A stretch of DNA of 64,000 bases from an uncultured Acidobacteriota bacterium (GTDB lineage: Bacteria > Acidobacteriota > Thermoanaerobaculia > Multivoradales > UBA5704). This document shows, piece by piece, positions 2,919-44,903 of the stretch; position 1 is the first letter of the stretch, and each line of letters begins with the position of its first letter. Location of the stretch: NCBI GenBank assembly GCA_963700145.1, contig OY969474.1:4000001-4064000 (forward strand), given 5' to 3'. Both the position numbers and the translations under genes were made by a program. Under the pieces are notes generated by a model that searched no databases, had not been told where the DNA came from, and worked only from the letters and a program-made list of their open reading frames with translations.

Positions 2919-2962
2919 AACGTTCTACCGCATAACGTTCACCACATCCACCCTTTAGCTAC

Positions 2963-3021
2963 GGCCAACTTCGTAGCCCCTCGCCGGCGGCGAAGCCGTC
3001 CGGTGCAGGGGCCGGTTAGCC
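2963..3021 (-). mobile_element. Complete 59-bp attC site
   Basis: Minus strand: GGCTAAC CGGCC CCTGCACCGGACGGC TTCG CCGCCGGCGAGGGG CTACGAA GTTGGCC. The stop of the upstream gene lies in R''. Confidence 0.85.
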
Positions 3022-3636
3022 GCTTCCCACGTCAGCACGATCACGCGCGGTATCCTTGCGTGCAGGAGCTGGCGCCTGAAAGCGATCAAGGAGGCTCGTT
3101 GCGCCATCCCAACCGTAGTGACTCATATATTCGCGGATTCTGCGAAGCTTCGGATCGGGGGAATCGGGCCGCAGGTGCACACCCCAATAGTCAAGGTAAG
3201 GTTCAACATCGCTCTCCGTGATGAGACCGGCGCGAATATAGCTCTCGAAGCGTTCGAGGCCGTCGCATAGCGTATCAAAAGCATCTCGAACCGCGGTCTC
3301 CTTCTCCGTGAAAGTGCAGCCATTGCCGTGAGGTCGCAGAGCATCGACGATCTCCTGAGCTGAGATGAATTCGAGCCGGTCGGGATTCTCTCTATGCGGG
3401 AAGAGCTGAATCGGCCGCCAGCCCCAATCCACCATCTTGAAGGCCGCGTCAACTTGTGGATTTGTAAGGAATTCCTTCATCTCCTGCGACACCCATTCGG
3501 CTCGCTTCCAGCGCTGAGCCTTCTTGTACTGGAGCAAGCCCACGACAAAGGCTACGCCTGCACCGAGGAGAGCGAACGCCGTGAGTGTCTGCTCCGCATT
3601 CCAGTTTGACAGCATTAATGGCTCCAAGTCGGCCAA
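3016..3636 (-). CDS. Cassette-borne hypothetical protein with N-terminal membrane helix
   Basis: Starts at a GTTGGCC core (3631-3637) and ends in the attC. Hydrophobic segment FALLGAGVAFVVGLL; lower GC. Confidence 0.75.
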   Translation of the reverse strand: MADLEPLMLSNWNAEQTLTAFALLGAGVAFVVGLLQYKKAQRWKRAEWVSQEMKEFLTNPQVDAAFKMVDWGWRPIQLFPHRENPDRLEFISAQEIVDALRPHGNGCTFTEKETAVRDAFDTLCDGLERFESYIRAGLITESDVEPYLDYWGVHLRPDSPDPKLRRIREYMSHYGWDGATSLLDRFQAPAPARKDTARDRADVGSG

Positions 3637-3728: not shown

Positions 3729-4196
3729 ATGAACGACGTGCTGCCGTGCCTCGACCTGCTCGAAGCCACTCCCGCTATCCTGCGCGGGCTGATGTCCGAG
3801 ATCTCCGCAGAGGACGCGCACTGGAAGCCGGCAGCCGACCGTTTCTCGATCGCCGAGGTGCTCTCGCACCTCTCGCATTCCGAGGCGCACTGCTACCGGT
3901 CCAGGCTCGACCGGTTCCTCGCCGAGGAGCGCCCGGAGTTCGAGCCGGACGATGCGCAGATGCATCTCGACGTGTACCGGAATGCCGACCCCGAGGAGGA
4001 CTTCGCGCACTTTGCGGACCAGCGTGAAACCAACATCGAGCTGCTGCGGGGCTTGCCCGCCGAAACCGGTGTCCGCAAGGCACTGCATCGGTTCGCCGGT
4101 GAGATCACGTTGTCCCAGGCGGCAGCGCCAGCGCGGCGTTTTGAGACTCATCTTCAGGCGCCGGTTATGCGGCGATTACTTGGTTCCACCGCTTGA
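3729..4196 (+). pseudogene. 3'-truncated inverted copy of the DinB-family gene at 5168-5680
   Basis: The first 130 aa differ from the intact copy at 8 positions. Similarity stops at 4118, before the HDxxH motif. Confidence 0.85.
4118..4158. repeat. 41-bp repeat (copy 2), followed by an attC stub
   Basis: GGCGGCAGCGCCAGCGCGGCGTTTTGAGACTCATCTTCAGG, then CGCCG GTTATGC (minus strand GCATAAC CGGCG). Confidence 0.9.
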
Positions 4197-25643: not shown

Positions 25644-25986
25644 AAGGGGACAGGTACGGGCCGCGTTCCACGGCTCGTCCGGCCGATGGGACAGGTTCGG
25701 CGCCGGGAACCGTCCATTTTCCGCCGCATGGGGCAGGTACGCGGACGAATGGGCCAGGTATGCGCCGTACCTGTCCCATTCGCGCGTGTACCCAGCCCAT
25801 TCGCCGGTGTACCTGCCCCATTCTCCGCCGTATGGCCCAGGTACACGCCGTACCTGTCCCATTCGCGCGTGTACCCAGCCCATTCGCCGGCATACCTGTC
25901 CCATTCTCGGCCGTACCTGTCCCATTCGCCGGCCTACCTTCCCATTCGCCGCTCGATCTCCGCCATGCGTGGCCGTACTTGCCGGG
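25644..25986. repeat. Degenerate 21-bp tandem array B (~17 units)
   Basis: Core GTACCTGTCCCATTC or its reverse complement ATGGGACAGGTAC at 25686, 25707, 25728, 25749, 25767, 25788, 25809 ... 25913, 25934. Confidence 0.92.
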
Positions 25987-26005: not shown

Positions 26006-26516
26006 ATGACGAGACTCCGGATCGCCGCTCGGCTGCCGTTCCTTCCCTTTCTGCTCCTGACCGCCGTGCCGGCGCTCGCCGCCGCCCCAAACTGGCTGCC
26101 GGCCCACGGATTCGCCGATGTCAACGGCGCGCGGCTCTATTACGAGGTGGGCGGCAAAGCGGACGGTGTGCCGGTCGTCTTCCTCCACGGCGGCGAGATG
26201 GACAGCCGTATCTGGGACGGGCAGTGGGAGCGCTTCGGGAAGGACCGGCGCGTCGTGCGCTACGACGCGCGCGGCTACGGCGGCTCGAACCTGCCCGACG
26301 CCCCCTACTCCGACGCCGAGGATCTGGCGGCGCTCCCTCGACTACCTGGGGATCGAGCGCGCCCACCTCGTCGGGCTCTCGCTCGGCGGGCGGATCGCCA
26401 TCGACTTCGCGCTCGTCCAGCCGCGCCGGGTGGCCTCCCTCACCCTCGCCGGCCCGGGGCTCGCCGGCTTCGAGTTCTCCTACCCGGAGGCCGGCAAGCA
26501 CTTCTGGGACCAGTGA
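26006..26516 (+). pseudogene. Alpha/beta hydrolase, frameshifted and 3'-truncated
   Basis: Signal peptide, VVFLHGG, YDARGYG, frameshift ~26335, GLSLGG. It ends against the convergent island gene with no Asp/His half. Confidence 0.8.
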
Positions 26517-26517
26517 T

Positions 26518-29500
26518 TTACTTGACCACGAACCGCCGCGTTTCACTTTCGGTCAATCCGCCCTTGCCATCCTCCACGATCACTTTCCAGAAATACGATC
26601 TCCCCGATTTCAGGGCGGCTCCGGATGGAGTGCTCCTGGCCGTTCTCTCCAGCATTCCGGGCTTGGATTTCTTCAGTATTCCGAGCTTGGATCTCTTCAG
26701 CCATCCGAGCTTGGACCGTTCAACCGTGATCGGTTTGGGGTCGCAGTCGTTCAGCGTGAACTGCCTTTCGATGGGCCAGATGCACTGTCTGTACGTCACG
26801 CCTTTGCTTTCCCGATCGGCCGCTTCGCTGAAGGTGAAGGGCACGGGCTGTGGGAGCTCCGCGCGGTCTGCGGGGAAGTCGAGCTTCGGCGGGTCGGGAA
26901 ATCGATTGCGCTCGCTCTGCTCGGTCTCGGCGTACGCCTTCGCGAACCCGGTCTCGCCAGTCACCATGACGTCCTGGATGCAGTTGTTCCTGCGGTTCTT
27001 GTCGGCGATGTTGCCGCAGAATTGTTCTGCGGTCCTCTCATCCAGCGGCTTCTGCGGCGCCGGTCCCGGCGGGATTCCCGCAGTCGGAGGCACGTCGCAG
27101 AGCGTGGGATTCTCTTCCGGCCATTTTTCGATCGTGAACGTCGCTGTGGACGTGCCGGGCGCGTAATCGAAGAGAGATGTCGCGGACGTCACGCGCCATG
27201 CCTTCTCGAACTTCTCGTACAAGTCGACATACCGCTGGTGCAGGCTCGCCGGCCGCGGGCCGAGCTGCGTTCCGTCCGGCAGCGCGGGCAGCCAGTTGTT
27301 CGGAGCGATCGCGCCCATGACTCCTTCCGTTGCGCGCGACTGCCGTACGTTGATGTTCATGTACCAGAGCTGACGATGGTCCCACCAGTTCGACGTGATG
27401 TTGATGACCGTCCCGCCGGGCGTATCGATCTGCAGGTTCGCGCCGGGCGACGCGCGGAAAACGCGGCCTCCTGAGGGAAGCCGGATCTCGCCGCCACCGA
27501 GGGTAGTGAGCTCGCCGTCGATGCGCAGTTCGGGACCGCGCTCGTTGGACTGTCCTTCGCGCGGGGGCTGGTACGTGATCCGATGTGGATCCACGCGCAC
27601 GGCTGCGGCGGGCTGGTACGTGATCCGATGCGGACCCACGCGCACGGCCGCGGCGGTGTTGATGCTGACGCAGGAGCTGAGGCCGGTATGCGCGTTGGGA
27701 GGAAGAGGCTCGCCCGTCGGGACCGCGGTCTGGCGCGTCTGGATCTCCACACCGAGATCGCGCAACAAGACGAATTCGCCCGCGCTCTGGAAGTCATAAT
27801 GAACGCCGTCAATCGTCTGAATGTGCGGATCCCCCTCGGTGTAGTTGGCGCCGCCGACGATCCATCGCTTGATCGTTTCAATGTCCGCCTTGCTGAGCGC
27901 AGGGCCGCCACACGGCATCATCCCCGTGCCGCTCGGCGGGCACGTTTCATCCGTGCGCGTAATGAATCGGTAAATGGGGCCCATCAGCGACGTCGACCTC
28001 GGCTGCGCGATGTCGTACGGCCGTCTCATCGGCGATGTTCCCGCCGGAGGGATTTCTTGTTCGGCCAGGTTCAACGTCGTGTCAACATTCTCATACGGCG
28101 GATAGCGCAGGTCGCCGTGACACTCGATGCAGCTCTTATTGAAGATCCTCTGCACGTCGGTGTAAGTGGGCGGATCGGCGGCGCCGGGCAATGATCCAAG
28201 CGAGGTGTTGACTAGAGGAATCACCACTGCGCAGGTCGTGGAAGTCCCGAGGCCGAGGCTCGTTCGCATTTCCGAGATCAGACGGTTGCGGTACGAGCCG
28301 AAGACGTCCGCGAAGGTGTAGGTGCGCGAACGGCCGCGGACTCCCATCGACCATTTATCGACAGATACGCCCAAAGGCTCCAGGAAGTAGCGAAACAGAG
28401 CCATCTTGTTCGTATTGGAGGTGTAGTCCTCACGATCGATGTAGAGACCGTTCATCACCATTGTGGTATCGCCGGGGAAGACCTCGAGCGGCCGCTGAAA
28501 GACCTCCCGTCGAACGCGGGGTGTATCCACGGTTGCCGTCGGGTCATATTGCTGGAGCAGTCCATTCTCCGAGGGAGGATCCATCAGATAAGGGTCGATC
28601 CTTCGGTCGAGAGCCATCTTCTGAATGTCCGCTTTCCTGCGGGGAAGGCTCACGGCGCTCTCTCTCGTATCGTTCACCAGGTCATTGATCCCGGTGATTC
28701 CGTTACGGGAATTGAAGAAGCCGAAGTCGACACTGAGCGCCGGCGTGCTCGTGATCGAGCCGCTGCCAGCCGGATTGATAGTCAGACAACTCATGGCGAT
28801 CGCCAGCGTGATCGGGCGGACGTCGATGCCGACGCTTCCCGTCGCAAAGCGGTGATCGATGAGCTCATCGGCGATTCGTTGGGGATTGAGATCGCCGTCC
28901 AGTCCGCCAAGGAGGTCGAAGAACTGGACCCCGCGACCCTCATCGAGATCCGGCCTCGAATAGTCGTCATTCAGGACGGCATCGGCCGGTGGGGGCTCAG
29001 GACTCTCGTGGCGCAGCGTGGCGTATCTGCCACCCTGCGTGACCGTCGACGGGGCAGTACTTGGCCCGCCGAAGTTGTAGCCACTCGTCGCCGTCGAGGT
29101 AGTGATCGCCGGCATTGAGTCGAATCCGAAGACGATGTGCCCGGTGTCTGTCGTGCTCGTGAGATTGCGCGTGATGCGGTGTGGACTCGTGGAGGAAACC
29201 CACGATGCCTGGAGCTGCAACTGCTCGAGGATCTGGCGGATGCTGTCGTTCTCCGCGCTGTTGCGCCAGTTCCAGAGATTGAAGATGCGACGGAATGCGA
29301 CCGCCTCCACCGAGCCCTGATAAATGCGGTCACGATTGAACGGCGTCATCCCACCCCAACTGTCGTAGGCATCCCAGTTCGGCTTGTTCTTGAACTTGAC
29401 GCCTCCCGGCGGGCCGCTGGTGCCGTTGGAGGTGGTGCGATTGAGCACGTTTCTCGTCGAATGGCATTTCGAACATTTGTCGTCGTCGATTGACACGCCG

Positions 29501-30213
29501 CGGCTTCTCGCCGGGATCGTGCTGGGAGCCGGCATCGCCAGGATGTCGGCGACGATGATTTCGTGGAAGCGGAAGTTCTTCTGAGTGGCGTCCCACTGCA
29601 TGTACTCGATGGCATTGGGATGCGCGCCGGGATAGGAGCTGTGCGGCGTCATTCCGATGGTGAACGTGAAGCGCGCGTCGTCGCTCGGCATGAGGATGCG
29701 AGGCGTGCGCGCGGTGCCGGTCTGCAGGCTTTCCGAGCGCGACATCAGGATCCAGTTCTGCCGGAAGTCGGCCCGCAGTGCGGCGATGAAGCGCGCCGGC
29801 GTGTTGATCTCCGGATGCGCCGTCAGGTAGGCCTGCAGCCCCGTCGCGCCATCGGGAGCGAAGTCCGTGATCGTCGTGATTGCCGTGTTCCATTGGAAAT
29901 TGGCGGTTACGGCGCGGGCCACGGTCATCGACACTGTACAGGTTCCGGTTCCTGAACAATCTCCGCTCCATCCGGTGAAGGTCGAGTCGGCGGCTGCGGT
30001 TGCGGTGAGTATCACCGTGTCTGTGGTCAGGAAGTTTCCGTCGCAGACGGTGCCGCAGTTGATCCCGGTGCCGGTGACGGTTCCGGACCCGAGGCCGGTC
30101 TTCAACACCAGCAGCGGGGGATCATCGGGCTGTGCGACGATCGCGAATGCAATCAACAAAAGGCCGAGGGTGAACGCGTAGGCGACGCGCGGCGGAGTTG
30201 CTGCGATCTTCAT
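26518..30213 (-). CDS. Large secreted diheme c protein: InlB-B-repeat-like domain, heme domain, cytochrome c domain, VWD domain
   Basis: Signal peptide; GSGTV...FTGWSGDCSG...VTANF; CSKCH; CIECH...MMPCGG...IKRWIVGGA; GDPHIQTIDGVHYDFQSAGEFVL. Confidence 0.8.
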   Translation of the reverse strand: MKIAATPPRVAYAFTLGLLLIAFAIVAQPDDPPLLVLKTGLGSGTVTGTGINCGTVCDGNFLTTDTVILTATAAADSTFTGWSGDCSGTGTCTVSMTVARAVTANFQWNTAITTITDFAPDGATGLQAYLTAHPEINTPARFIAALRADFRQNWILMSRSESLQTGTARTPRILMPSDDARFTFTIGMTPHSSYPGAHPNAIEYMQWDATQKNFRFHEIIVADILAMPAPSTIPARSRGVSIDDDKCSKCHSTRNVLNRTTSNGTSGPPGGVKFKNKPNWDAYDSWGGMTPFNRDRIYQGSVEAVAFRRIFNLWNWRNSAENDSIRQILEQLQLQASWVSSTSPHRITRNLTSTTDTGHIVFGFDSMPAITTSTATSGYNFGGPSTAPSTVTQGGRYATLRHESPEPPPADAVLNDDYSRPDLDEGRGVQFFDLLGGLDGDLNPQRIADELIDHRFATGSVGIDVRPITLAIAMSCLTINPAGSGSITSTPALSVDFGFFNSRNGITGINDLVNDTRESAVSLPRRKADIQKMALDRRIDPYLMDPPSENGLLQQYDPTATVDTPRVRREVFQRPLEVFPGDTTMVMNGLYIDREDYTSNTNKMALFRYFLEPLGVSVDKWSMGVRGRSRTYTFADVFGSYRNRLISEMRTSLGLGTSTTCAVVIPLVNTSLGSLPGAADPPTYTDVQRIFNKSCIECHGDLRYPPYENVDTTLNLAEQEIPPAGTSPMRRPYDIAQPRSTSLMGPIYRFITRTDETCPPSGTGMMPCGGPALSKADIETIKRWIVGGANYTEGDPHIQTIDGVHYDFQSAGEFVLLRDLGVEIQTRQTAVPTGEPLPPNAHTGLSSCVSINTAAAVRVGPHRITYQPAAAVRVDPHRITYQPPREGQSNERGPELRIDGELTTLGGGEIRLPSGGRVFRASPGANLQIDTPGGTVINITSNWWDHRQLWYMNINVRQSRATEGVMGAIAPNNWLPALPDGTQLGPRPASLHQRYVDLYEKFEKAWRVTSATSLFDYAPGTSTATFTIEKWPEENPTLCDVPPTAGIPPGPAPQKPLDERTAEQFCGNIADKNRRNNCIQDVMVTGETGFAKAYAETEQSERNRFPDPPKLDFPADRAELPQPVPFTFSEAADRESKGVTYRQCIWPIERQFTLNDCDPKPITVERSKLGWLKRSKLGILKKSKPGMLERTARSTPSGAALKSGRSYFWKVIVEDGKGGLTESETRRFVVK
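26650..26721. repeat. In-frame 24-bp tandem repeat, 3 copies
   Basis: Encodes ERSKLGWL KRSKLGIL KKSKPGML. Confidence 0.85.
27566..27655. repeat. In-frame 45-bp tandem duplication
   Basis: Encodes AAAVRVGPHRITYQP AAAVRVDPHRITYQP. Confidence 0.9.
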
Positions 30214-30220
30214 GACGCAC

Positions 30221-30580
30221 CTATTGCTTTCCGGACTCGAGGCCGAGGATCCAGTTCACGAGGCGGGAGATCTCTTCATCGGTGAGGCGTGGGGAGTGCG
30301 GAGGCATGGGGACGCCTCTGGAGATGCGCGTCCAGTTGCCCTTGCCGCCTTTCTTGACGGTCTCGATCAGCCGTTCGGGCGCCTTCGGGTCGCTTTTGTA
30401 TCGCGCGGCGACGTCCGCATAGGCCGGGCCGACGACTTTGTTGTCGACGCTGTGGCACTCGAAGCAGCCGGCCTGTTTCGCCAGCTCGGCGGGAGGCAGC
30501 GTAGCGCTCTCCTGAGCAATGAGTCCTGGAGCAGCACTAATGAGAACACCAAGGGAGATACCGATCCAGCGCGTGTTCAT
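30221..30580 (-). CDS. Class I cytochrome c (c551/c552-like)
   Basis: Signal peptide; GCFECHSVDNKVVGPAY; GVPMPP Met ligand; RBS GGAGGA. Confidence 0.92.
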   Translation of the reverse strand: MNTRWIGISLGVLISAAPGLIAQESATLPPAELAKQAGCFECHSVDNKVVGPAYADVAARYKSDPKAPERLIETVKKGGKGNWTRISRGVPMPPHSPRLTDEEISRLVNWILGLESGKQ

Positions 30581-30808
30581 GCGATCCTCCGTTAAGGACG
30601 CCACGTCGGCGCAGGCGAGCGCCAGCGAAGTGGTTGATCTGTCGGTCCGATCCGGCCATCATCTCAGCTCGATGATCCCCTCTACCCGCCTTAGCAGTCG
30701 TCGCCGTTCAGGGTTTGCCGATGTCGTCGGGCTAAGTGAAGTGATGTCCGTAAAGCAAGCGGGGTCGGCAACTCCTGTGCTAAACGACCGTTTTGCTTCG
30801 CGATCACA

Positions 30809-31237
30809 TCAGCCTAAGCAGTAACCGTTGGCGCTGTTATTTCCCTCATCAGATTCATCTACCACGTTAGTGGAGTCAATGGCGATCGTGAAGTGACAAT
30901 CAGGCTGGTGGCAATTCGCTGGGAAAGCTCCTAAAGCAATCGGTCCGAGATTAAGCGACTCGCCTCTTGTCAGAACAGGCGTGGGCAAGTCGACCACTTG
31001 GTTACCGGTCGGTACGGAAGTGAATGTGACTCTTGTGATTGAGGCTGGCGCATCAGCAAGCCCTTGATTCTTGACTATGACTATCAGCCTGCCGTTATCA
31101 TCCAAGCTGCAGTATGCAACTGGGTCCGTACCCAAATCAGGTAGCTTAACTGCCAGCAGGTCCGGCTTTGAGTCGCAACCGCCGAGAGCAGCGATTGTCG
31201 AAATCCCAAAGAGCAGTAGTAGCGTTTTACCACGCAT
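30809..31237 (-). CDS. Lipoprotein with CARDB-like domain
   Basis: RBS AAGGAGGG; lipobox LGGC; KPDL...VKNQG...DSTNVVDESDEGNN. Confidence 0.8.
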   Translation of the reverse strand: MRGKTLLLLFGISTIAALGGCDSKPDLLAVKLPDLGTDPVAYCSLDDNGRLIVIVKNQGLADAPASITRVTFTSVPTGNQVVDLPTPVLTRGESLNLGPIALGAFPANCHQPDCHFTIAIDSTNVVDESDEGNNSANGYCLG

Positions 31238-31451
31238 CGCATACCCTCCTTTTGGAATTCAGGTTTCGCGCACAATAACGCACTGCGAGTCATGCCTCTG
31301 TGTCGGAGAGGATAACGCTGGTCGTTGACCATGATGGAGGCTGCCCTCCTTGCCATGCCAATGTCCTGGACAAGTTCCATGCTCTCTACGCGGGGGGTTG
31401 TGGCTCTTCGGGAGCCATTGCATTCGGCAGTCACCATGAAAGCGACAAGGC

Positions 31452-31677
31452 GCCGAACCTCTGCTTCTACGGATTGGCCGGCTTTCGAACGAGGGGTGGC
31501 ACAGCCGTTCGGCTGTCCGCATATGCTCCTGCTCCGAGAGCGGGCCCATGGCTGCCAGATGCTTGCGCCTCTATAAGTTGCGCGATTATAGCAGGAAAGA
31601 AGCGTCGGCGCGAATGCGGCTCGGAAGGGCCAGCTGCGGAATCCTCCAAGTCTGCGGCTAAGGCTTAGGCCGGCAGG
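31452..31677 (-). mobile_element. Putative integron attI/Pc region (copy A)
   Basis: Lies downstream of intI. Extended -10 TGCTATAAT at 31593-31585. Ends ...GCAGAG GTTCGGC. Similarity to 42911-43126 stops at this GTT. Confidence 0.7.
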
Positions 31678-31925
31678 CGCTTAGGCGGACGCCGGAGCCG
31701 GCTCCCGCCGGGGCGGGGGCTCCCACGACCTCTGGTGATTGGCGGGCGCGCGGTGCCACGGCGTCGTCTAACCGGCCCTGGCGGATCGAAGCTGGAGCGT
31801 AGGCGGCGGATCGGCGCCGCCTACGCGCCGCTAAAGCCGTGCGCCTGCCCCGTGCGCCGACCACCTGCGAGGAGCTTATGCGGCATGGCTCTGTCGGCTA
31901 AGCACGGACAGGGGTAAGAGCCGCG

Positions 31926-32288
31926 CTACAGAAAGTCCGCCGGGCTGCGCACGCCTCGGCCGCCCTTGTTGAGGACGTGGGTGTAGATCATGGTGGTCTT
32001 CAGGTGCCGGTGGCCGAGCAGCTCCTGGACGGTGCGGATGTCGTAGCCGTTCGCCAGCATGTGGGTGGCGAAGCTGTGGCGGAGACAGTGGAGCGTCACC
32101 GGCTTGGCCACACCGGCCTGGCGCGCCGCCTGCTTGAAGGCCCGCTGCACGGTCCGCTCATGGAGGTGGTGCCGCCCCTCCCGGCCGGTGGCGGGGTTCG
32201 CGCCACCGGCTGGAAGCCGGGAAGGCGTACTGCCAGCCCCACTCCCGGGACGCCCCCGGGTACGAAGCCGTCGGCCAGGTCGCGCTGG
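31926..32288 (-). pseudogene. intI: Integron integrase, 5'-truncated with internal deletion and frameshift
   Basis: QRDLADGF / [16 protein letters not shown] / RHHLHE (IntI-specific patch); [10 protein letters not shown]; [13 protein letters not shown]; [19 protein letters not shown]. Confidence 0.92.
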
Positions 32289-32360
32289 CTTAGGAAGAAA
32301 AGACTAATTCGGGATGCCAGGGAGCTTGCAGGTGAGGCCGCAGGGAGAGTTCCCCTGGCC

Positions 32361-32389
32361 TTGACAGGGTGCCTCGCCCCTCCTACACT
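32361..32389 (+). promoter_or_regulatory. Sigma70-type groESL promoter
   Basis: TTGACA-17 bp-TACACT. Confidence 0.85.
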
Positions 32390-32390
32390 G

Positions 32391-32417
32391 TTAGCAGTCT
32401 CAACCGCTGAGTGCTAA
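32391..32417 (+). promoter_or_regulatory. CIRCE (HrcA operator)
   Basis: TTAGCAGTC-N9-GAGTGCTAA, one mismatch to the consensus TTAGCACTC-N9-GAGTGCTAA. Confidence 0.92.
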
Positions 32418-41698: not shown

Positions 41699-42865
41699 GT
41701 GCCTGATCTAGCTCTCCTGCAGCCCTTCCTCGACGACCGCCACCGCGCGCTCGCCAGGAGTCTTGCCGTCTTCGCCGCTCGCGCCGTTGCCCCTTTGCCG
41801 GCTCCGGCCGACGACGCTGCCGGCCGCACACAGGCCCGCGAGCTGCTCGCGCTGCTTGGCGAGAACGGCTGGTTGCAGCACGCCGTCCCCGCCGCGGACG
41901 GCGGCTCCCCCTACCCCGACCTCCGCGCCTGCTGCCTCATCCGCGAGACCCTCGCCGCCGCCTCGCCGCTCGCCGACGCCGTCTTCGCGCTCCAGTGCCT
42001 GGGGTCGCTCCCGATCGCCCTCGCCGGCCGCGAAGCGCTCCGCCGCCGCTGGCTCCCCGAGGTCGCCGCCGGCCGCGCCATGGCCGCCTTCGCCATGACC
42101 GAGCCGGAGGCCGGCTCCGACGTCGCCGCCCTCGCCACGACCGCGCGGTGGGACGGCGACGCCTACGTCCTCGACGGTCGCAAGGTCCTGATCTCGAACG
42201 CCGGCATCGCCGACTTCTACTGCGTCTTCGCCGCCACCGACCGCGCGGCCGGCGCGCGCGGGCTCTCCTGCTTCCTGATCGAGGCCGGCGCCCCCGGGCT
42301 CCGCTTCGCCGGCGCGCAGGTGCTTTCGGCGCCGCACCCTCTGGGCGAGCTCGTCTTCGAGGGCTGCCGCGTGCCGGCCGAGCAGCGGCTCGGCGAGGAG
42401 GGGGAGGGGTTCAAGCTCGGCATGCGCACCCTCGACCGCCTCCGCCCGACGGTGGCGGCGGCGGCCTGCGGCATGGCCGAGCGCGCCCTCGCCGAGGCGA
42501 TCGCGCACGCCCGCCGGCGGCGGCAGTTCGGCCGGCCGCTCGCCGAGTTCCAGCTCGTGCAGGAGAAGCTGGCGCGCTCGGCCGTGGACCTGGCGGCGGC
42601 GCGCCTCCTCGTCTACCGCGCCGCGGCCGAAGGCGACGCCGGCGCCGAGCGCCTCACCCTGCCGGCGGCGATGGCCAAAGCCTTCGCCACCGAGGCGGCG
42701 CAGCGCATCGTCGACGACGCCCTCCAAGTCCTCGGCGGCCAGGGCGCCCTCGCCGACCACCCCGTCGAGCGCCTCTACCGCGCCGTCCGCGCCCTCCGCA
42801 TCTACGAGGGCACGACCGAGATCCAGCACCTCGTCATCGCCCGGGAGCTGCTGAGAACCGACTAG
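41699..42865 (+). CDS. Acyl-CoA dehydrogenase
   Basis: FAMTEPEAGSD, RRQFG, RIYEGTTEIQ. Confidence 0.93.
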   Translation: MPDLALLQPFLDDRHRALARSLAVFAARAVAPLPAPADDAAGRTQARELLALLGENGWLQHAVPAADGGSPYPDLRACCLIRETLAAASPLADAVFALQCLGSLPIALAGREALRRRWLPEVAAGRAMAAFAMTEPEAGSDVAALATTARWDGDAYVLDGRKVLISNAGIADFYCVFAATDRAAGARGLSCFLIEAGAPGLRFAGAQVLSAPHPLGELVFEGCRVPAEQRLGEEGEGFKLGMRTLDRLRPTVAAAACGMAERALAEAIAHARRRRQFGRPLAEFQLVQEKLARSAVDLAAARLLVYRAAAEGDAGAERLTLPAAMAKAFATEAAQRIVDDALQVLGGQGALADHPVERLYRAVRALRIYEGTTEIQHLVIARELLRTD

Positions 42866-42910
42866 CTACTTGGTTGACGCGGTTGCGGCCCTGACACGCT
42901 TCTCTGTCTC

Positions 42911-43126
42911 CCTGCCGCATAACCCTTAGGTGTTGACTTCGACGATTCCGCAGACCGGCCCTCCCACCGCATTTTGCGCTCCGGCGCCTCTTTCCTGCTA
43001 TAGTGACATAACTTATAGAGGCAGAAGCATCTGACGGCTATGGCCCGCTCTCGGAGCAGGGGCCTCCACACGAACGGCTGCCCCCCCGTTCAAGAAGCGG
43101 CCAGGGCCTGGTTGCAAAGGTTAGAT
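42911..43126 (+). mobile_element. Integrase-less attI/Pc-like region (copy B)
   Basis: Collinear blocks shared with the reverse complement of 31452-31677. Extended -10 TGCTATAGT at 42996-43004. Ends GCAAAG GTTAGAT, 23 nt before a low-GC ORF. Confidence 0.7.
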
Positions 43127-43149
43127 CTGACACGCAAGAGCCCGCGTAT

Positions 43150-44454
43150 ATGGCAGACTCTTCAACGCTCTACGACCTCAAACGAATCCTCACATCGAGG
43201 GGAGCTCTCCTGTATCTTCTGGGTGTAGCCATAACTGCGGCTGTGGGGATTCAACTCTGCTCGCGGAATGTAGGTCTCTCGATTCACCACGCGCTCATCA
43301 CTCTTGAGATATTTGCCTATAGCTTGTTCATCGCTTGGTTACTGCTCACGCTGATTGAGTTGATTGAATCAAGAGACAGGGTTTTTGACATACTCTTTTT
43401 GACTATTCCTATTCTGTCAATCGGTGGCATGTTCCTTCAGATCCTAGCCAAATATCACAACGCTGCATTTTGGCTGACTCTCGTAATCTGGACGCTTCTT
43501 GGAACATTCGTGGCTGTCGAAGAGGTGCAAATGGTGGGTAAGTCAGATATTTTCCTCGTTGCCATAGGGGCAACGTGGTCTATTTCTGGGGCCATCATTT
43601 CAGCGGGAACAACTTCTCTTCTGCCTTACTCTCGTTCCGCAATAGGCGGGCTGCGGTCTGTCCACTTATTCCTCGACCTCCGGTATCTGCTCGGGTCAAT
43701 TTTTTTGGTTGCGCTTATCGCCATTGCCGGCGCAAGGGCCTTAAGGGAACGTCCTCCCGCAATTAATGATATCGAAGCATTGCAGGTCGGCGAGTTGGCC
43801 GAGGACAATGTCCTTGCATGGCTCGTTCGACCATTCACGACGTTGATCAATGTGCTACTCCTCTTGGTGTCAGTGGCTCTGGATTATCTTCTGAAGGCTG
43901 CTCGGATAACCGTATTCTATTTCGCGGCTATAGGTCGCCACATAGCCGAGATTGTGGTTTCTCTTGTAAAATCACGAGAAGCTTGGATCAAGATTGGAGA
44001 GTGCGTTGTTATCTTTTTATCAATTGTGCTCGCCACTGTCTTCCTTAGAAACTTCTGTCCCTTCCTCCTCGCGTATCTCCGCTCAAGCGCCTGGGGCGCT
44101 CAGACATTAAACCTGGCACTCATTGCTGGATTTGTAGCCCTGATTCTTCTCTGTGTGGGTCTTGCGCTGTTGATCTTTTCTGAATACGACGATGTTTTCA
44201 TTGAGCCTTTGGTGGCCTCTTTCGCTACGGTCGTATCCATCGTGTTTGCGGCAGGTCTACTTATCTACGCGCTCGCCTGGCTAGATGTTCTTGTCATCCA
44301 CGGGTTTCGTGTGCCGGGACCGTTTTCTATTCTAGTGATCGTTTTAATTTTGAGTGGCATCGCGAAAGTGATAGCTCAGTCCACCGGCGGGGTAACATCC
44401 AACACGGACGCTGGTCCGAATGCCAAGCGCGCCTTACGCGGCCGCCGCCAGTGA
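43150..44454 (+). CDS. Low-GC multi-pass membrane protein, probable cassette cargo
   Basis: About ten hydrophobic segments; much more AT-rich than its flanks; starts just after a GTTAGAT core. Confidence 0.75.
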   Translation: MADSSTLYDLKRILTSRGALLYLLGVAITAAVGIQLCSRNVGLSIHHALITLEIFAYSLFIAWLLLTLIELIESRDRVFDILFLTIPILSIGGMFLQILAKYHNAAFWLTLVIWTLLGTFVAVEEVQMVGKSDIFLVAIGATWSISGAIISAGTTSLLPYSRSAIGGLRSVHLFLDLRYLLGSIFLVALIAIAGARALRERPPAINDIEALQVGELAEDNVLAWLVRPFTTLINVLLLLVSVALDYLLKAARITVFYFAAIGRHIAEIVVSLVKSREAWIKIGECVVIFLSIVLATVFLRNFCPFLLAYLRSSAWGAQTLNLALIAGFVALILLCVGLALLIFSEYDDVFIEPLVASFATVVSIVFAAGLLIYALAWLDVLVIHGFRVPGPFSILVIVLILSGIAKVIAQSTGGVTSNTDAGPNAKRALRGRRQ

Positions 44455-44457
44455 GGT

Positions 44458-44607
44458 TCAAACCGCTGGCTGCTGTTCCCCGCTCGGTCGCGCAACGAGA
44501 GGCAGGAAGCGAGCTGGATGGCGTCGCCGGAGCCGGCGCACGGCGTCTCTTCCGCGCTCGGCGACGTAGTTCTTGGCCAGCGCGCTGGCGTCGAGAAAGC
44601 CGATCAG
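44458..44607 (-). pseudogene. Truncated VapC PIN toxin
   Basis: (L)IGFLDASALAKNYVAERGRDAVRRL is a PIN N-terminus overlapping the antitoxin stop; the resemblance ends after ~26 aa. Confidence 0.7.
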
Positions 44608-44903
44608 AAGCGGTCCTCCCGGTCCTCGATGATCGTCTCTGCGATCGATGGGCCGCTCTTCAGCTTGATGCGCTTGAACGGCCGCAGCGGCTTGCCGGTG
44701 CCACGGGTGATCAGCCCCTCCGCCGCGAGCTGGTCCAGCTTCTCGTCGAGGGTCTTCGGCGGCGGCGCCACGACGAGCCCCCGCAGCTCCGCCACCGGCC
44801 GGCCGCGCTCGGTGACCTCGATCGTGGCCCCTCGCTGCACCAGCCGCAGGTAGGTCCCCAGCCGCTTCCTCAGCTCCTTCGCTCCCACCCGCTTCGTCTT
44901 CAT
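44604..44903 (-). CDS. Phd/YefM-family antitoxin
   Basis: VGAKELRKRLGTYLRLVQRGATIEVTERGRPVAEL...IIEDREDRF. Confidence 0.88.
   Translation of the reverse strand: MKTKRVGAKELRKRLGTYLRLVQRGATIEVTERGRPVAELRGLVVAPPPKTLDEKLDQLAAEGLITRGTGKPLRPFKRIKLKSGPSIAETIIEDREDRF

Follow-up and report, generated by a model that had tools for sequence, protein, structure and literature searches.

Introduction

The chromosomal integrons of Xanthomonas in which intI is inactivated are sedentary arrays with a decayed integrase, found at one locus per genome. In class 1 integrons, according to part of the text of PMC8876359, two short open reading frames (ORFs) of the attI1 site, ORF-11 and ORF-18, couple translation into the first cassette, and the stop codon of ORF-11 lies at core positions 3–5. 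Portions of the survey in PMC4889954 describe an inverted integron-integrase group (e.g., in Treponema), report intI pseudogenes near 15 of 279 attC clusters that have no integron-integrase (CALINs), and state that attI sequences are known for few integron classes. Genome surveys therefore rely on counts of integrases and attC sites and are blind to the attI/promoter part, which we call the head. Cassette insertion at genomic GWT sites is also a known route, as part of another source describes (bioRxiv 10.1101/2022.09.11.507474). Here we describe a repeat that occurs twice, as heads A and B, in a window of 64,000 nucleotides (nt), which is the whole stretch of DNA that was analyzed and corresponds to positions 4,000,001–4,064,000 of a single-contig genome of 5.46 Mb with a GC content of 71.5% (hereafter G000). 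We put the probability at roughly 0.7 that the repeats form a family of integron heads and that head B is a degenerate, integrase-less member followed by one foreign unit.

The heads would be the cassette promoter (Pc)–attI platforms of "inverted" chromosomal integrons, in which the array lies downstream of intI and runs in the same direction. From 5' to 3', TAAGC-type boxes would come first in a head, then an extended −10 promoter (TGCTATAAT), and then a leader of about 150 nt in which a ribosome-binding site precedes a 22-codon ORF; the head would end in the attI core ...CCAATCCGTAGAAGCAGAGG/TTRGGC, where cassettes join (the slash marks the junction). The promoter presumably fires, and the leader ORF may couple translation into the first cassette. 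This arrangement resembles the class 1 platform, as far as it is set out in part of PMC8876359, in having a promoter (putative in the heads) directed into promoterless cassettes, a GTTRRRY end, a short ORF with a ribosome-binding site across the crossover, and a TAG supplied by the cassette. No sequence similarity to attI1 was seen, and none was tested. Unlike the class 1 platform, the head lies downstream of intI rather than upstream of it and divergent, its leader has about 150 nt and 22 codons compared with the 11 codons of ORF-11, and heads are numerous in a genome and mostly without intI. The same direction of intI and attC array is a trait of the inverted group, as described in portions of PMC4889954, and of three of three sister-genus integrons. 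In contrast to the inverted group, intI survives only as C-terminal remnants in all genomes of the genus that were searched. As in CALINs and single attC sites lacking integron-integrases (SALINs), integron parts occur here without a neighboring integrase, and G000 has 15 attC sites; however, CALINs and SALINs are defined by attC, whereas the repeated, recognizable part in the present case is the attI/promoter head. The difference from the Xanthomonas integrons is that several heads of at least three lineages occur per genome, one of them inside an array.

Heads in the Genome and in Related Genomes

Head B (42905–43125, +) aligns with the reverse complement of head A (31452–31683), and the two are 79.0% identical over 157 nt by blastn (E 1e-30). 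The initial annotation, which was made from the sequence alone, had described 42911–43126 as a diverged copy of the reverse complement of 31452–31677, and the pairwise alignment agrees with this, in that all the blocks named there are present in the order given. It had also placed the end of the similarity at GTT and lower-GC DNA after each copy. Both statements hold: identity stops at GTT, where GTTAGAT (43120–43126) stands against GTTCGGC (31458–31452, −), and the GC content directly 3' is 0.47–0.57 for B and 0.52–0.60 for A, compared with 0.715 for the genome.

Further copies, which the initial annotation had suggested looking for in the genome and its relatives, were found in both. A head profile built from 13 copies matched nine places in G000 at E ≤ 1 (nhmmer), five of them near full length (A, B, C, D, and F; E from 1.5e-63 for A to 2.3e-36 for B) and four partial (p1–p4; E from 7.9e-13 to 0.015). 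Copy C matches head A over 408 nt at 75% identity (blastn). Among 61 related genomes, long matches were confined to the same genus of Thermoanaerobaculia (Acidobacteriota), which was sampled by five genomes, G000 and its four congeners G001–G004: there were six in G003, four in G004, two in G002, and none in G001, the assembly of which is 81% complete. Short matches of 28–66 nt (E 1e-5 to 8e-4) in seven genomes outside the genus were treated as unproven. The 22-letter core motif was also present in three contigs labelled Thermoanaerobaculia bacterium and in nine metagenome contigs, each of the nine carrying a head. In G000, lower-GC DNA lies 3' of the head at seven of the nine places; at D it does so only briefly, and at p4 not at all.

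Eighteen of 20 heads were anchored on GTT, D and p3 being left out because they did not fit the anchor pattern, and identity across these 18 breaks at GTT. Mean pairwise identity was 0.86 for the final 10 nt of the heads, fell to 0.57 in the 4 nt that follow (mostly R-R-S-C), and was 0.25–0.32 farther on. The heads end in AGGTT followed by RRRY. Conservation is far higher in the 22-nt attI core than elsewhere in the head, the heads being 47–70% identical overall, and a TGCTAnnAT box is conserved across the alignment. The orthologous head of A in G004 is 90% identical, with flanks of 94–96% identity, and is followed by 7.7 kb of cargo unrelated to the 5.0 kb in G000. Both the 18-head profile and this orthologous head show a fixed left arm up to G/TTRRRY and variable cargo to its right, which points to an attI site. 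One head in G003 lies within an attC array, 59 nt past an attC, and its 5' part is missing. In the head tree, head B forms the longest branch and clusters with A and C (support 0.98); 8 of its final 22 bases differ from the consensus. A transposon or miniature inverted-repeat transposable element was ruled out because the 5' ends of the heads differ between copies, there are no terminal repeats, and the 3' end is exact. No repeat shared by the cargo ends was found by blastn among the 7-kb stretches 3' of eight heads.

Many heads also carry a short ORF in the leader. This frame of 22 codons, MRTVER.....FESRPIRRSRG, starts at an ATG preceded by an AGGAG box, and its last codon (GGT) overlaps GTT. 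Its length of 66 nt is kept in 13 of 19 heads despite the variable middle five codons. In 11 of the 19 it is intact, beginning with ATG or GTG and containing no stop. Four heads close it with a TAG or TAA on core positions 3–5; in the others it continues into the cassette. With a ribosome-binding site and ATG, a frame that crosses the crossover, and a stop supplied by the core, the head family thus appears to have an ORF of the ORF-11 type, which is probably translated. A DNA spacing constraint for integrase binding would likewise preserve the 66-nt length. Head B departs from this pattern: it has no start codon, and the corresponding stretch is 56 nt instead of 66.

Association of the Heads With intI Remnants and attC Sites

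Head A begins about 250 nt downstream of an intI pseudogene on the same strand. This remnant matches the integron-integrase model TIGR02249 with 139 bits over model positions 226–313, which is below the cut-off of 265 bits, and XerC with 88 bits. Its ...RHHLHE aligns to the IntI-specific segment of five intact IntI proteins, by which IntI is told from Xer; the gene itself is broken. A C-terminal intI remnant lies just upstream of 8 of 19 heads (G000_A, G004_Aorth, G003_C334a, G004_C52, and heads on four metagenome contigs), and a variant head in G002, which is additional to these eight, is likewise preceded by one. Immediately upstream of head C, in the place where an intI remnant would be, there is an IS3-family transposase pair.

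Correctly oriented attC sites follow five of the seven profile hits in G003 and four of the nine heads on metagenome contigs, several of which end too early for downstream attC sites to be judged. In G004, a full attC follows one of three head hits, and two attC fragments occur about 5.8 kb past the orthologue of A, whose cargo (L080, 2157–7862, −) is dominated by one ORF of about 1,900 codons and has attC fragments at its far end only. These sites were identified with an iterative attC profile seeded with a sister-genus array and with an attC covariance model from 27 sites. In G000, the covariance model gave the total of 15, and strong attC sites lie behind one of the nine heads, p3. A genome-wide scan for strict R''/R' palindromes gave 22 sites, mostly inside genes, and was set aside as not useful.

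The bacterial family holds intact integrons, 8 of 41 genomes scoring above the IntI cut-off. All three intact sister-genus integrons examined have their attC array downstream of intI and co-oriented with it. Downstream of the stop codon, six of seven sister-genus intI loci have TAAGC-type boxes, a TTGAC(N17)TAnnnT promoter with a clear −35/−10 pair at the position equivalent to that in the heads, about 130–150 nt, and then AGGTT; the seventh locus (L064) runs into another gene. Five of these six loci have sequence beyond GTT, and all five continue with a GTTRRRY-like core; in one integron, this core and the R' ends of the integron's attC sites match. The head profile has no match in the 1.5-kb flanks of intact intI genes from other genera; the likeness is one of architecture, not of sequence.

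Head B and Its Cargo

The neighbors of head B are a native acyl-CoA dehydrogenase gene (acd) and a vapBC pair in decay. The head starts about 35 nt past the conserved sequence that follows the intact stop codon of acd. As the initial annotation had stated, copy B has no integrase beside it; with a mere remnant at A, neither copy has the adjoining intI gene of an integron platform. At this locus, G003 has only 36 bp between the flanking genes, G004 has an unrelated stretch of 597 bp, G001 has an intact vapBC-like pair, and G002 has an intact vapBC-like pair and about 1.2 kb of other sequence. Searches with the head and attC profiles found neither a head nor an attC here in any of the four congeners, and nothing similar to the cargo of B was present either. 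The vapC-like gene of G000 has an internal deletion and directly adjoins the cargo; the vapC/PIN naming comes from our reading of the translation.

The cargo is a compact foreign unit: a single ORF takes up 1,305 of its 1,336 nt, and its GC content is about 0.47–0.53 compared with 0.715 for the genome. The encoded protein has no Pfam, NCBIfam, or PADLOC family (best Atlas score, 0.76) and one relative, of 54% identity, in a word-indexed protein collection. ATCCAAC lies at 44397–44403, at the 3' end of the cargo, where the initial annotation had placed it, and an attC-profile match covers 44391–44474 at full length and in the correct orientation, with a weak score (8.8 bits, E 0.05 per 64-kb window). 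The heptamer GTTAGAT of head B is the R' box of an attC in the array of a congener. Crossover in head B would have taken place between G43120 and T43121, where IntI may once have joined the cargo, and a transcript would start near 43011, downstream of TGCTATAGT.

Copy B is most likely a decaying relic rather than an active platform, because it diverges more than any other head, no longer has the leader ORF, and departs from the consensus at the 8 of 22 final bases mentioned above. It would now be inactive, and any expression of the cargo would depend on the remaining −10 box.

Several observations weigh against interpreting the repeats as heads that received cassettes. A simple −35/−10 consensus scan found no promoter in heads A and B. 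No recognizable attC lies within 7 kb downstream of G000 heads A, D, and F, and head C has a partial match of 6.8 bits only over the same distance. The cargo of A resembles an operon of large genes rather than classical cassettes. At both loci, the far end of the cargo cuts a native gene (the hydrolase gene at A and vapC at B), which a clean attI × attC insertion does not predict. For the putative attC of B, the covariance model gave 7.7 bits (E 3.7) on the other strand and did not confirm the site; because of this negative result and the weak profile match, the cassette interpretation of the B cargo is likely but unproven. Nor does reading the repeats as heads account for how integrase-less copies reached new loci.

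Alternative Explanations

An alternative that concerns only the origin of B is that it is what is left of a second complete integron, which decayed in place by deletion of intI and kept the head and the first cassette. We consider this rather unlikely. It fits the stepwise loss of intI at other heads, as at locus A, where the remnant goes back about 165 codons in G000 (108 aa, 61% identity), whereas in G004 it consists of two pieces of about 22 and 31 aa, and it fits the several intI copies or fragments per genome that sister genera often carry. However, no intI fragment is detectable near B. The short distance between head B and the conserved sequence downstream of acd, and the lack of any head or attC at the locus in the four congeners, also argue against this origin; it would require the arrival of a whole integron and then a very tidy deletion of intI. 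Heads may have come to new loci by in-place decay of a second integron, within a composite cassette, or as fragments inserted illegitimately.

The initial annotation had proposed a dispersed integron, in which stand-alone Pc–attI units, B included, capture and express cassettes by means of IntI acting in trans. Such an IntI could be supplied by a plasmid or a transient element outside the assembly. The promoter/attI anatomy in this proposal is upheld by the intI remnants, the GTTRRRY end, the attC arrays, and the varying cargo; a live platform served in trans is not, and we regard it as quite unlikely. In its favor, the conservation of the 22-nt core suggests a lasting constraint, and one head stands inside an array directly after an attC. 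Furthermore, the intI remnants of G000 and G004 at locus A are interrupted by one and the same in-frame TAG, located in the stretch aligned with the IntI motif ITVRDGKG. Therefore, intI was already dead in their common ancestor, and as the two genomes have different cargo, the cargo of locus A changed after the death of intI. In contrast, no intact intI was found in the single-contig genome G000, where the A remnant is the sole IntI-like sequence and four other matching loci are ordinary recombinases with at most 79 bits on the IntI model. None of the five genomes of the genus reaches the TIGR02249 cut-off, and the nine metagenome contigs, which are short, carry remnants only and no full-length intI. 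Head B itself lacks the leader ORF and departs from the consensus at 8 of its last 22 bases. Recombination with DNA of a related strain, homologous or one-sided homologous, could also account for the turnover of cargo at A and would fit the truncation of native genes at the far ends of both cargos. We have equally little confidence in the broader possibility that the heads are relocatable multi-copy modules of a distributed integron, with an integrase from elsewhere, cargo exchange after the death of intI, and leader ORFs of their own.

The remaining explanation, a conserved 5' leader, regulatory RNA, or promoter module for unrelated genes with no role in recombination, is highly improbable: the promoter-like box, the 150-nt conserved transcribed stretch ahead of varied genes, and one 4-bp stem in which 4 of 13 sequences have G-C in place of A-U would suit it, but the 13-head consensus fold is weak (−6.4 kcal/mol, covariation term −0.16), no Rfam family matches, and the intI remnants, co-oriented attC arrays, GTTRRRY end, and differing orthologous cargo are all left unexplained. 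Rfam gave no match at the gathering score in the whole window and, in E-value mode over 42850–43250, chance-level eukaryotic families only (E ≥ 0.77). A structured leader RNA was dropped because of the weak fold. The part of the leader-RNA alternative in the initial annotation that stands is the conservation of the leader, which was most likely kept for its ribosome-binding site and short ORF.

If the repeats are integron heads, their long, recognizable sequence allows orphan attI/promoter units to be spotted in one lineage. At least five of them persist in an integrase-less genome, each ahead of foreign genes that include SIR2-, TIR-, and Mrr-type genes, and the finding offers a natural test bed for the origin of integrase-less arrays and for whether such arrays stay active. 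The translation-coupling leader ORF of class 1 integrons seems to be paralleled in a distant environmental family. Copy B alone is a modest result, most likely a decaying relic with one orphan gene. No earlier description of orphan or multiple attI heads was found in a literature search in which work on Acidobacteria integrons was judged by the title or the start of the abstract, and the supplementary tables of PMC4889954 may list Acidobacteria integrons. The aspects that seem to be new are the several head lineages per genome, the heads away from intI and within arrays, the loss of intI throughout the genus as sampled, and the ORF-11-like leader.

Other Features of the Window and of the Head Loci

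The features around heads A and B are listed in Table 1.

Table 1. Features at the two head loci, with positions in the window.
Feature	Position	Strand	Basis or remarks
intI pseudogene remnant with frameshifts and in-frame stops, N-terminal part missing	31926–32394	−	Pfam Phage_integrase, E 1.4e-21; TIGR02249, 139 bits; tblastn with five intact IntI
Head A	31452–31853	−	Profile part 31452–31683 and 170 nt upstream common to copy C; TGCTATAAT at 31593–31585
22-codon leader ORF of head A (MRTAERLCHPSFESRPIRRSRG), AGGAG ahead, reaching the crossover	31457–31522	−	
Cargo A: CARDB protein (30809–31237), cytochrome c (30221–30604), 1231-aa protein (26518–30213)	26474–31455	−	
Head B, diverged promoter/attI platform, putatively ending at the GTT crossover	42905–43122	+	nhmmer match 42912–43125, E 2.3e-36; alignments
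TGCTATAGT, extended −10-like box, putative Pc	42996–43004	+	TGCTAnnAT kept across heads; by-eye reading
Core site GTTAGAT	43120–43126	+	Fits GTTRRRY; identity among heads collapses after GTT
Putative single cassette, about 1,336 nt, GC about 0.47–0.53	43121–44456	+	Composition; bounded by two GG/TT junctions
B cargo gene, 434-aa orphan hydrophobic (membrane-like) protein	43150–44454	+	ORF call
Possible degenerate attC, ATCCAAC...GTTCAAA, 66 nt, overlapping the cargo stop codon	44397–44462	+	Weak attC-profile match
Native toxin–antitoxin pair: vapC-like remnant (about 44470–44606), phd-family antitoxin gene (44607–44891)	44470–44891	−	Aligned to the G001 and G002 pairs, which are intact; phd_fam, E 3.6e-6

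The native gene at the far end of cargo A (26061–26516, +), which we take to be hydrolase-like, is cut short at about 26473, the start of the cargo, and is complete in G004. Beyond this end, a 21-nt unit (consensus about GCGCGCGTACCTGTCCCATTC) occurs about 9–10 times at 25660–25960, in both orientations, and arrays of 20–21-nt units also occur near the intact integrons of two sister genera (L077, 13368–15588; L078, 7875–8178 and 17084–17547). A weak match to the attC model (31753–31816, +; 10.4 bits, E 0.92) lies between head A and the intI stop, in sequence common to copy C, and may be due to chance. Elsewhere in the window, the covariance model detected a cluster of attC sites without a head or an integrase, comprising two strong sites (2030–2115 and 2952–3034, both −; 44 and 61 bits) and a weak one (4091–4183, −). 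No tRNA or tmRNA genes were found in the window.

Outside the window, the first genes behind heads C, p1, p2, and p3 (L100, L103, L104, and L105) include those for an Mrr-type nuclease, Tectonin, SIR2_2 (623 aa), a HAD hydrolase, and TIR_2, several of which suggest an anti-phage-defence flavor. On metagenome contig L094, a head at the end of the contig has as its first cargo a gene for a tyrosine recombinase (1848–2624, −) that is about 33% identical to IntI over 301 aa. SymE-toxin-like ORFs lie directly upstream of heads D (L101, 5408–5842) and p1 (L103, 5137–5487).

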